Virus genome (UHGV): UHGV-0249779
Reading direction: 5' to 3' (one strand)
Source of the DNA: a virus
Length of the DNA: 11,814 nt
Under the pieces are notes generated by a model that saw nothing but the letters and a program-made list of their open reading frames with translations, had not been told where the DNA came from and did no database searches. Of the stretch, positions 9,182-11,710 are shown one piece after another; the first letter of the stretch is position 1; each line of letters opens with the position of its first letter. The translations under genes and the position numbers were made by a program.

Positions 9182-9266
9182 AGTCAGAGATAACAATCAA
9201 CTAATACTGTTTTGTTGATTTTTGCTTGTAATTGGCGTTTTGGTCTGATTTTTGTGGAGTAAGTTG

Positions 9267-9650
9267 ATGCGTGATATTCAGATGGTTCTTGAGCGTTGGG
9301 GAGCGTGGGCGGCTAATAATCATGAAGATGTGACCTGGTCGTCCATTGCCGCCGGTTTTAAGGGATTAATTCCTTCAAAAGTAAAATCTCGCCCGCAATG
9401 TTGTGACGATGACGCGATGATCATTTGCGGGTGCATGGCCCGTCTGAAAAAGAACAACAGCGATTTGCACGATTTATTAGTAGATTATTATATAGTCGGT
9501 ATGACATTCATGTCACTGGCAGGTAAGCATTGCTGCTCTGATGGTTATATCGGGAAAAGGTTACAAAAGGCTGAGGGCATAATTGAAGGGATGTTAATGG
9601 CATTAGATATCCGGTTAGAGATGGATATCGTTGTTAATAACTCTAATTAA
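9267..9650 (+). CDS. quuD: Late-gene antiterminator Q (QuuD/phage-82/21 type)
   Basis: 127 aa from ATG 9267, with GGAG 7 nt upstream: [21 protein letters not shown]...[20 protein letters not shown]..., matching DLP12 QuuD from recall. The track start at 9252 is a TTG. Confidence 0.85.
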
Positions 9651-9669
9651 TACGCCAATTATTTACTAA

Positions 9670-9701
9670 AAGTTATTAAAAATGGGGCGTTGAAACGCCC
9701 C
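9670..9701 (-). terminator. Rho-independent terminator for the porin transcript
   Basis: Hairpin GGGGCGT-tgaa-ACGCCCC (9684..9701), followed on the minus strand by ATTTTTAATAAC. Confidence 0.5.
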
Positions 9702-9724
9702 CAAAAATAAAGGGTAATATATAA
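9690..9724 (+). promoter_or_regulatory. Candidate late promoter PR' (Q-utilisation region)
   Basis: -35-like TTGAAA (9690..9695) with -10-like GGTAAT/TAATAT/TATATA candidates at 9713..9724, 17-19 nt downstream. Placement directly 3' of Q follows the lambdoid pattern. Sequence-only inference. Confidence 0.3.
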
Positions 9725-9789
9725 CAGAAGGTTTATATAGTTAGAAGCAAGGTTGTGCTTCTAAAGGAAGTGGCTTGAGGGAGCCACTT

Positions 9790-9830
9790 ATATGTTGGGG
9801 AGGCAAAGCCTCCCACAACATATCTTTTAG
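9790..9830 (+). terminator. Candidate tR'-like terminator (long hairpin plus CTTTT)
   Basis: 15/16-bp imperfect inverted repeat ATATGTTGGGGAGGC-aaa-GCCTCCCACAACATAT (9790..9823) followed by CTTTTAG. Preceded by two further hairpins at 9743..9762 and 9768..9789. Confidence 0.4.
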
Positions 9831-9838
9831 TAATCAAA

Positions 9839-10921
9839 TTAGAACTGGTAAACCATACCTACAGCAACGATATCATCGGTAGCAACGCCAGATGCTTTCG
9901 TGAAATCGCTCTTATCAATCAGGTTGATTTTGTAGTCAACAAAAGTGGACATATTTTTGTTGAAGTAATAGGTTGCACCTACATCAACATATTCAACCAG
10001 GTCCTGATCACCCCAAACACCCAAGTCTTTTCCTTTAGAATGCAGGTAAGCAACGGATGGACGCAGGCCGAAGTCGAACTGATATTGTGCAACAGCTTCG
10101 AAGTTTTGTGCTTTGTTGGCAATATGGTTATTACCAAAAACAGTCATGTTCTGGGTTTCAGAATAGGTGGTGGCCAGATAGATGTTGTTCGCATCATATT
10201 TCAGACCAGCTGCCCATACTTCAGCATTTTGACCAGAAGCATTCAGACCGTTGTTACCGTAGATAACCTGATTATTAGTGCGATCAGATTTAGCATAGGT
10301 TGCACCCACGCCGAATCCTTCATACTCATAAGTAGTTGAGAAACCGAAACCATCGCCATTAGCTTCAGTTACTTCATTTCGGTCATTTTTGCCCTGATAC
10401 TGAGCTGCAAAGTTCAGGCCATCAACCAGACCAAAGAAGTCGTTGTTACGATAAGTTGCAACACCTGTGGTGCGACCAGTCATGAATACATCTGTTTGGG
10501 TCCAGGTATCGCCACCGAATTCTGGCAGAACGTCGGTCCATGCACCGATGTCGTATGCTACACCGTAGTTACGGCCGTAATCGATGGAGCCGTAGTCACC
10601 GAATTTCAGGCCAGCGAAGGCAAGACGGGTTTTATCTTTGGAGGAACCTTGAGATTCAGCGCGGTTGCCTTTGAATTCATATTCCCACTGACCGAAACCA
10701 GTCAGTTGATCGTTGATTTGGGTTTCACCTTTGAAGCCAAGACGGGCATAAGTAGTATCACCATCATCTGCATCATTAGAGGAGAAGTAGTGCTTAGCAT
10801 TAACTTTCCCGTACAGATCCAGCTTGTTACTGTCTTTATTATAAATTTCAGCTGCCTGAGCAGACATCGCCATCAGTACTGATGCAGCTACAGCAGAAAT
10901 TGCCACTGTTAATTTTTTCAT
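9839..10921 (-). CDS. nmpC: Outer-membrane general porin of the OmpC/OmpF family, prophage-borne (NmpC/Lc type), apparently intact
   Basis: 360 aa. Signal peptide [23 protein letters not shown] followed by AEIYNKD...; C-terminal ...VGMVYQF with terminal Phe; a beta-barrel-like alternating aromatic/Gly composition. Location between Q and the holin, antisense, matches DLP12 nmpC and the PA-2 lc gene. Confidence 0.9.
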
Positions 10922-11349
10922 CGTGAGCCCTTTTTTTTGAACTATTATTAAAAAATGATGTCACTGCGCGATAAATATTCATCTAATCAATGTGATTATT
11001 TCAAGATGTAAGTTTTGGTTTCTCGTTTGATTTGTGAAGTAGATCTCTATTTTTATCTGAACTTTTTTCTATCGAATCCTATTCATAGCTCTTGGCTGAA
11101 TAAAAATAAATCTATTAGCCAATTTATATTAACGGCTGTTATTTATAAGTGCTCTATAATTTGAAGGTTCAATTTAAATCGGCTAAAAATAACACTGGAA
11201 ATTATTTGTTGGTTATTTGTTGAGGTTTTCTTATGTATTTGTGGTGGTGTTTTGAACACTCGGTAGCATTCTCGCAAATATCATTTAGTGGTTTACGTAC
11301 GTAAAAAATTGGTTATGCTGTTAAGAGTGGTTACTTCGTCACACAGCTT
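10922..11349. promoter_or_regulatory. Long AT-rich regulatory region upstream of the porin gene (porin promoter and 5' UTR, unresolved)
   Basis: A non-coding tract of more than 400 bp, strongly AT-rich with many A/T runs, immediately 5' of the porin start. No specific promoter hexamers could be assigned with confidence. Confidence 0.4.
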
Positions 11350-11382
11350 AAACCCGCCGTAGAGCGGGTTTTTCCATTTTTT
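11350..11382 (+). terminator. Rho-independent terminator-like hairpin about 110 bp upstream of the holin gene
   Basis: AAACCCGC-cgtaga-GCGGGTTT followed by TTCCATTTTTT on the plus strand. Confidence 0.55.
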
Positions 11383-11494: not shown

Positions 11495-11710
11495 ATGAAA
11501 TCCATGGATAAGTTAACAACGGGTGTCGCCTATGGCACCTCAGCAGGTAGTGCCGGGTACTGGTTTTTACAGCTGCTAGATAAAGTCACGCCCTCACAGT
11601 GGGCGGCAATTGGAGTGCTGGGTAGCCTGGTATTTGGCCTGCTGACGTACCTGACAAACCTTTATTTCAAGATTAAAGAAGACAAGCGTAAGGCTGCACG
11701 GGGAGAGTAA
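11495..11710 (+). CDS. essD: Class II holin of the phage 21 S type (pinholin, EssD-like), with dual start
   Basis: 71 aa, [26 protein letters not shown]...[33 protein letters not shown], matching S21/EssD from recall. Met1 and Met4 give the 71-aa and 68-aa products. GAGGTGGGG upstream of the ATG. Confidence 0.9.

Follow-up and report, generated by a model that had tools for sequence, protein, structure and literature searches.

IpeX, a small RNA (sRNA) of the E. coli prophage DLP12 and its relative PA-2, represents the closest described system to the region analyzed here, which comprises positions 9651-9838 of a stretch of 11,814 nt from a virus genome (UHGV-0249779), hereafter the window. 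In both systems the locus type is the same, with the element placed between a Q antiterminator gene (quuD in DLP12) and a convergent porin gene of the nmpC/lc family. The reviews dealing with IpeX cite Castillo-Keller, Vuong & Misra (2006, J Bacteriol 188:576) as the original report. One of them lists ipeX as a sequence of 167 nt that is made as part of the porin transcript, and processing from a longer precursor is stated there to be required. Published work attributes to IpeX the post-transcriptional repression of OmpC and OmpF, describes the effect on ompC as Hfq-independent, and regards the mechanism as unclear. The region 9651-9838 is very probably the 3' untranslated region (3'UTR) of the minus-strand phage porin gene, and as such the ipeX locus of the DLP12/PA-2-type lambdoid prophages. 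The element is therefore already known, and the initial annotation, which had read it on the plus strand as the late-promoter region downstream of Q with a short RNA like lambda 6S, mis-assigned both its strand and its function.

Other well-known regulators offer points of comparison. MicC is a chromosomal sRNA that represses ompC by pairing at the very site of the ompC leader considered below, while CpxQ, DapZ, and SroC are enterobacterial sRNAs derived from 3'UTRs, which use the terminator of their parent mRNA. In the late cassette of lambdoid phages, a promoter (PR'), a Q-binding element, a sigma-dependent pause site, and a terminator (tR') follow one another, as in the region producing the lambda 6S RNA or in PR'21 of phage 21. 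What 9651-9838 has in common with such a cassette is only that it lies just 3' of Q and contains hairpins. Unlike the lambdoid cassettes, it holds neither a promoter nor a Q-binding element, and does not co-occur with Q.

The identity of the region follows from its alignment with the quuD-nmpC spacer of DLP12 in E. coli MG1655 (locus L003) and with the sequence downstream of lc in PA-2 (J02580), to which it is 95.7% identical over 186 of its 188 nt. Only eight positions differ between the window copy and that of K-12, comprising substitutions and one indel of 1 nt. In K-12, however, nmpC is cut by IS5, whereas the porin gene of the window is intact. The window itself represents an E. coli prophage of the lambdoid, DLP12/PA-2 type. 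Upstream of the spacer, the plus strand encodes a Q antiterminator of the QuuD type (9267..9650; 127 aa; PF06530, E = 1.1e-53) that is remotely similar to the Q21 structures 6P18 and 6JNX (E = 1e-7). On the other side, the minus strand encodes a porin of the nmpC/lc family (9839..10921; 360 aa; PF00267, E = 3.6e-152), whose homologues are labelled OmpD, NmpC, or simply porin in phage records. Both genes converge on the spacer, Q ending at 9650 and the porin stop codon occupying 9839-9841.

Loci of this kind are common. A query of 701 bp that ran from the last part of Q across the spacer into the 3' part of the porin gene matched 72 phage records, as well as 3692 of the 5426 complete E. coli genomes searched, and the 188-bp spacer alone was matched in 2510 of the latter (~46%). 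Nevertheless, the element is unannotated in the RefSeq and phage records inspected, and among the matches listed for complete E. coli genomes the spacer carries no annotation in any row. A search of 9200-10200 against Rfam 15 with permissive E-values returned best hits of 15-19 bits (E > 3), far below the gathering scores, and no IpeX family was among the matches. The mistaking of this element for a late promoter by those who read the sequence is thus likely to persist, since neither annotation nor an Rfam match points to its true nature.

Read on the minus strand, the first structure past the porin stop codon is hairpin H4 (9790..9823), with stems of 8 + 7 bp and one bulge, followed on the plus strand by CTTTT. 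Next comes H3 (9768..9789), a perfect stem of 8 bp (9768-9775/9782-9789) closed by the 6-nt loop CCCUCA (9776-9781), and then H2 (9741..9764), with nine perfect pairs (9741-9749/9756-9764) and another 6-nt loop, which exceeds the hairpin initially noted at 9743..9762 by 2 bp on each side. An AU-rich stretch of 39 nt (9702..9740), predicted to be unpaired or weakly paired, follows and holds the putative seed. The region ends with the intrinsic terminator of the porin/IpeX transcript (9677..9701), consisting of a stem-loop (9701-9684) with a perfect stem of 8 bp (9684-9691/9694-9701) and the tract AUUUUUAA, so that AUUUUU stands directly after the hairpin. The terminator scan called this hairpin together with ATTTTTAA on the minus strand only, in agreement with the initial proposal that 9684..9701 ends the convergent porin gene. 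The three hairpins H4, H3, and H2 belong to the porin transcript because they are placed between its stop codon and its terminator. Starting with the base next to the stop codon and including the whole U-tract, the predicted IpeX-type RNA would span 9672..9838 on the minus strand; as its 3' end is predicted at about 9672-9675, it would measure 164-167 nt, which matches the length of 167 nt listed for IpeX.

The four stem-loops that had been pointed out in this region were all recovered as inverted repeats, and the folding that had been proposed as a check exceeds chance by far on both strands. Compared with dinucleotide shuffles, the minus strand at 9672-9841 has a minimum free energy of -61.5 kcal/mol (shuffles, -29.5 +/- 3.8; z = -8.4; none of 200 as good), and the plus strand at 9726-9832 one of -47.5 (shuffles, -25.1 +/- 3.0; z = -7.5). 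Because the stems are near-perfect palindromes that fold in both orientations, structure alone does not decide the strand, and the assignment to the minus strand relies on the direction in which the terminator works, on the linkage to the porin, on published experiments, and on the analysis of the seed. The idea of a small structured RNA encoded here holds, although this RNA is not a 6S-like product of the plus strand but the 3'UTR of the porin gene on the minus strand.

The fold is preserved among homologues. The covariance model R1 found full-length matches at 92 loci, 62 of them distinct, and in the structure-aware alignment of these 62 homologues 97.2% of the cells are paired. Changes on both sides of a pair occur at 11 of the 39 pairs, versus 2.3 +/- 1.2 in shuffles (0/500 reach 11) and 0-5 in slid controls. 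They affect four of the eight pairs of H3 and four of the nine of H2, and compensatory changes in H4 were found at locus L115 (9798 G>C with 9815 A>G) and also at L163, L353, and L359. In L163 and L353, the stem of H2 has a wholly different sequence with its pairing intact. This helix was missed by MAFFT with RNAalifold, which misaligned H2 in the diverged copies, and was resolved by the covariance-model alignment. The terminator stem is likewise kept, with G-U variants, and the U-run is longer in the diverged copies. While the stem of H3 covaries, its loop CCCUCA is preserved in nearly every homologue, the diverged copies from prophages and plasmids among them.

Diverged copies were obtained by anchored searches in 15 E. 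coli genomes, including porcine enterotoxigenic strains (L163, L126, and L150), as well as in metagenomic sequences (L295, L353, and L359). All of them lie between a gene for a 127-aa Q protein and a convergent porin gene, have the late cassette beyond the porin, and keep the order H4, H3, H2, unpaired stretch, and terminator while their stem sequences differ.

The distribution of the spacer indicates that the element follows the porin gene rather than Q. All loci with a Q identity of at least 98% carry the spacer at an identity of at least 95%, whereas all 27 Q-homologue loci in which Q identity does not exceed 87% (L087-L113) lack it. The linkage to the porin is deduced from the fact that the spacer is missing at Q loci devoid of a porin gene and present at porin loci devoid of Q. 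Among the latter, E. coli SCU-306 (L116, 2501-2686) retains, between ybcM and yedK, a prophage remnant that comprises the porin gene with the IpeX region but lacks Q; the spacer match in the strain Nissle 1917 (90.9%) is the same as in SCU-306. Similarly, conjugative plasmids of the IncI type from Salmonella, E. coli, and Citrobacter (35 plasmid records) encode a porin sharing 62% identity with that of the phage, and an IpeX-like 3'UTR was found at L366 1494-1648 (NC_022267.1, pS1400_89) with a score of 62.4 bits for R1 (E = 4e-16). In this plasmid copy the stem sequence of H4 has been entirely replaced and still pairs; the H3 loop CCCUCA and the seed portion AAACCUUCUGUUAUAU are kept, the UACCCU portion of the seed is missing, and the upstream neighbor of the porin and its IpeX-like element is a helix-turn-helix gene instead of Q.

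A candidate for the late-promoter cassette lies instead at 11292..11376 on the plus strand, beyond the porin gene and approximately 120 bp upstream of the holin open reading frame (ORF) 11495-11710. This predicted PR'-like cassette, which is not part of the element, comprises a -35 hexamer TTTACG (11292-11297), a -10 hexamer TATGCT (11314-11319), the invariant TTAAGAGTG (11321-11329), and a terminator hairpin (11350-11371) with a T-run, and was located by motif search, terminator scan, and alignment with the cassettes of relatives. The motif occurs once in the window, where 0.08 chance matches are expected, and the hairpin 11350-11371 is among the plus-strand terminators called by the scan. 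Most porin-less relatives of Q (at least 11, from E. coli/Shigella, Trabulsiella, Pantoea, Citrobacter, Xenorhabdus, and Providencia) hold the same cassette, starting 4-140 bp past the Q stop codon and consisting of TTTACG(T/A)(A/T)CGTAAAA, 16 nt, TATnnT, G(T/A)TAAGAGTG, CTTA, and a GC hairpin with a T-run. Its distance from the Q stop codon is below 200 bp in porin-less loci and 1.0-2.0 kb in the 165 porin-carrying ones, where it lies beyond the porin. The layout resembles that of PR'21 as annotated, on an experimental basis, in the record of phage 21 (OL657228), where the -35 element is found seven nt past the Q stop, followed by a Q-binding element in the spacer, the start site, the pause element TAAGCTG, and the terminator. 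For DLP12, the literature describes a regulatory region of its own for the lysis operon, upstream of essD and under the control of a Q-type antiterminator.

These similarities suggest that 11292-11376 is the real late-promoter cassette of the window. With the cassette in this position, late transcription would start downstream of the porin and never cross 9651-9838, and the porin gene with its flanks (about 9651-11290) would represent cargo inserted between Q and PR'. The -35 hexamer TTTACG of the cassette sits within the palindrome TTTACGTACGTAAA, and the invariant TTAAGAGTG is comparable to the pause element TAAGCTG of PR'21. The palindrome may be the Q-binding element, in which case it would be unlike the site of Q21, which is a direct repeat. 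At two further loci, L093 (Citrobacter braakii) and L231, approximately 2.3 kb of other DNA separate the Q stop codon from a TTTACG..CGTAAA cassette, suggesting that the Q-PR' junction is a recurrent site of cargo insertion.

In light of this cassette, it is very improbable that the spacer on its plus strand holds a Q-dependent PR', a Q-utilization (qut) or pause site, and a short 6S-like RNA ending at a tR' formed by 9790-9823 and CTTTT. The position directly after Q, as in lambda and in phage 21, speaks for such an arrangement, and so do the good folding of the plus strand, the long hairpin followed by T4, and two hexamers resembling a -10 element (TAATAT, 9715-9720, and TATATA, 9734-9739). 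However, the promoter scan of 9651-9838 detected no sigma-70-like site, and the sole hexamer resembling a -35 element, TTGAAA, is the loop of the terminator, stands 19 nt from TAATAT, and varies between homologues. Furthermore, the spacer does not resemble the sequences that follow Q in L087-L113, whose cassette (TTTACGTACGTAAAA...TTAAGAGTG...terminator) is matched at 11292-11376, beyond the porin in all 165 porin-carrying loci, and the element tracks the porin instead of Q. The comparison with the PR'-tR' regions of phage 21 and DLP12, which the initial annotation had proposed as a check, points in the same direction, as the PR'21-like layout is found at 11292-11376 and the corresponding spacer of DLP12 is ipeX itself.

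Within the 3'UTR, conservation peaks in the unpaired core at 9711-9733 rather than in any stem: a set of 50 close variants shows variation at one of its 23 sites, and in the diverged trio its identity is 91-96%, versus 48-83% for the other segments. This conservation suggests a constraint on sequence that goes beyond structure. On the minus strand, two parts of the putative seed, AACCUUCUGUUAUAU (9719-9733) and CCUUUAUUU (9705-9713), are complementary to the leader of ompC. The former forms 15 contiguous pairs, including one G-U, with positions -21..-7, over the Shine-Dalgarno sequence, and the latter adds 9 bp at -31..-23. Pairing energies were calculated both as window-based hybrids plus opening costs and as seed-only duplexes compared with dinucleotide shuffles, since folding of the full-length duplex produced meaningless pairing over the whole length. 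The seed-ompC duplex has an energy of -26.7 kcal/mol, versus -15.9 +/- 2.9 for shuffled seeds (3/1000 as good), and of about -12.4 kcal/mol once opening energies are included. The duplexes of the seed with ompA and phoE are no better than those of shuffled seeds (535/1000 and 243/1000 as good, respectively), and the start region of the phage porin itself gives -14.3 kcal/mol (47/1000), far weaker than ompC. The 15 contiguous pairs with the Shine-Dalgarno region of ompC are kept in three lineages; in that of L163 they occur in a shifted register, and the seed also forms 16 contiguous pairs with ompF at -13..+3 (11/1000). Seed pairing would therefore amount to an ordinary antisense occlusion of the ribosome-binding site, and the length of the ompC duplex is compatible with the reported independence of Hfq. 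The H3 loop CCCUCA, in turn, is complementary to UGAGGG in the Shine-Dalgarno region of ompF and in the ompC leader (-66..-61), and could possibly be a second anti-Shine-Dalgarno site presented in a loop.

Several similarities bring this seed close to MicC. The 5' end of MicC, GUUAUAUGCCUUUAUUG, and the unpaired core of IpeX, CUGUUAUAUAUUACCCUUUAUU, have the blocks GUUAUAU and CCUUUAUU in common, and AAUAAAGGCAUAUAAC in the ompC leader is the stretch to which both are complementary. Both RNAs are also genetically linked to a porin gene, as MicC is encoded next to ompN. Despite these similarities, MicC is transcribed as a separate gene from a promoter of its own and has the seed at its 5' end, while in IpeX, a tail at the 3' end of a porin mRNA, the seed is internal; this seed reaches 8 nt further over the Shine-Dalgarno sequence than that of MicC, and no similarity exists outside of it. 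In its biogenesis, IpeX is closer to CpxQ, DapZ, and SroC, with which it has in common a 3' end and a terminator provided by a coding mRNA, a conserved unpaired seed upstream of that terminator, and U-rich sequence leading up to its hairpin. The promoter scan found no promoter-like site inside the 3' end of the porin gene. Contrary to these sRNAs, IpeX is located on mobile elements (prophages and IncI plasmids), holds three extra hairpins 5' of the seed, and has been reported to act on ompC independently of Hfq.

Some observations weigh against this interpretation or limit its reach. The transcript ends and the processing proposed for the window are predictions from sequence, and the alignment from which the covarying pairs were counted (A4, built with R1) was fitted to the structure of the model and is hence biased towards it. 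A test contrasting G-U with A-C pair states leans to the minus strand (13 versus 8), although not significantly (p = 0.19). The variant of the window forms 10 contiguous pairs over the Shine-Dalgarno sequence of ompF, a result that is not significant (103/1000 shuffled seeds as good), and the significance of the seed was gauged against shuffled seeds only. Moreover, the 2006 work on ipeX reportedly found no complementarity between ipeX and the ompC leader; the pairing with ompC may have been overlooked earlier, or tested and found insufficient. The anatomy, the covariation, the linkage to the porin, the identity with the DLP12/PA-2 locus, and the location of the late cassette elsewhere come from the present analysis, the repression of OmpC and OmpF is taken from the literature, and the pairing of the seed and the processing of the RNA are inferred.

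Alternative functions of the same region have also been considered. The 3'UTR could act in cis only, as a bidirectional terminator or insulator that also stabilizes the porin mRNA from its 3' end, and give rise to no RNA with a function in trans. The clear terminator on the minus strand fits this function, and stable 3' hairpins commonly shield mRNAs from exonucleases. Besides, H4 with the T4-T6 that follows it (T5 in K-12-type copies and T6 in those of the L163 type) could stop plus-strand transcription coming out of Q. However, a purely structural role is difficult to reconcile with a conservation that is highest in the unpaired core instead of the stems, with the complementarity of this core to the start regions of ompC and ompF, and with the repression of OmpC and OmpF attributed to this sequence in published work, so that an exclusively cis-acting element appears improbable. 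A role of the plus strand that would not exclude IpeX is somewhat less remote, if still unlikely: transcripts of Q could end at H4 and its U-run, and their tail, fully antisense to IpeX, could sponge it or trigger its cleavage during lytic growth. Q and the porin gene are convergent, each with its putative terminator beyond that of the other, and most lineages retain the T-run past H4. Nevertheless, H4 was not called by the terminator scan, the T-run is interrupted in L150 (CTTGTT versus CTTTT-CTTTTTT), which would weaken termination on the plus strand, and early transcription modified by N, which reads through terminators according to the lambda paradigm, would pass this site anyway.

Several public annotations place a small protein in this region, such as 'ORF1' of PA-2, an ORF of 34 aa in phage Chlobot, and a hypothetical coding sequence in 434B, and both strands do contain ORFs of 26-35 aa. 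The ORFs in question occupy 9733-9837 (minus strand) and 9775-9882 (plus strand) of the window, and 180-389 of L114 and 2034-2138 of L002 in public records. A coding function is hardly credible, given that indels of 1 nt at the T-run (9824-9828) and at an A-run shift the frames between close variants, that the substitutions are compensatory in the stems and not codon-like, and that the frames are not kept in the diverged copies. Because such indels break the frames even between close variants, the small ORFs are probably mis-annotations of the RNA element.

The interpretation as ipeX leads to the following model. Transcription from the porin promoter would pass the stop codon (9839-9841) and then H4 (9823-9790), H3 (9789-9768), and H2 (9764-9741), cross the unpaired stretch (9740-9702), and stop at the terminator (9701-9684) and its U-tract. 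IpeX would be the 3' fragment of ~165 nt produced in this way, whether released or still attached to the porin mRNA as its tail, and would lower the levels of the host porins OmpC and OmpF post-transcriptionally. Its invariant unpaired core would function as an antisense seed, with 5'-AACCUUCUGUUAUAU-3' on ompC -21..-7 and CCUUUAUUU upstream, while the neighboring UAUUACCCUU would pair with the Shine-Dalgarno region of ompF, in both cases blocking the binding of the ribosome. The hairpins and the terminator would confer stability on the RNA. As the translation start region of the phage porin is not complementary to the seed, the host porins would be swapped for that of the phage.

Other features of the locus deserve mention. 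An AT-rich inverted repeat of 20 nt with 80% complementarity spans the Q stop codon (9631-9650/9663-9682); the part of the spacer just after Q is its most variable segment, and as the second half of the repeat falls in it, the repeat is probably due to chance. ARAGORN found no tRNA or transfer-messenger RNA in the window. In the GenBank record of PA-2 (L114), two binding sites for CRP/CAP are annotated upstream of lc (1434-1454 and 1730-1750), which correspond to the spacer between the porin and holin genes of the window (about 10922-11290) and suggest a catabolite control of the porin/IpeX transcript. Insertions of the IS5 family are recurrent at this locus, as in MG1655 (L003), phage 434B (L001), and E. 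coli JB2 (L118). In K-12 and the 434B hybrid, IS5 has entered nmpC 58 bp from its 3' end. In JB2, the spacer match ends after its first 64 bp, with the transposase gene of ISKpn26 (IS5-like) directly beyond, and the hairpins and the seed of IpeX have been lost.

To what had been described for IpeX, the present analysis makes a modest addition, namely the location of the late cassette beyond the porin cargo, covariation in favor of the IpeX fold, the plasmid homologues, and an explicit model for the pairing of the seed. The correct placement of the element fixes its strand and its parent gene, and implies that in phages of the DLP12/PA-2 type the late promoter lies past the porin cargo. In addition, the 15-bp pairing with the Shine-Dalgarno region of ompC provides a testable model for an sRNA whose mechanism has been deemed unclear. 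A broader view, whose chances we regard as evenly balanced, is that IpeX is a canonical anti-Shine-Dalgarno seed RNA, MicC-like at its seed, and part of a portable module for porin replacement carried by prophages and IncI plasmids. Its lineages would tune the seed to ompC (15 bp in all of them) or ompF (16 bp in L163), and the junction between a QuuD-type Q gene and PR' would be a cargo site that keeps the porin outside late transcription. The replacement of host porins by those of prophages and plasmids is relevant to the loss of phage receptors and to the permeability of the cell to antibiotics.

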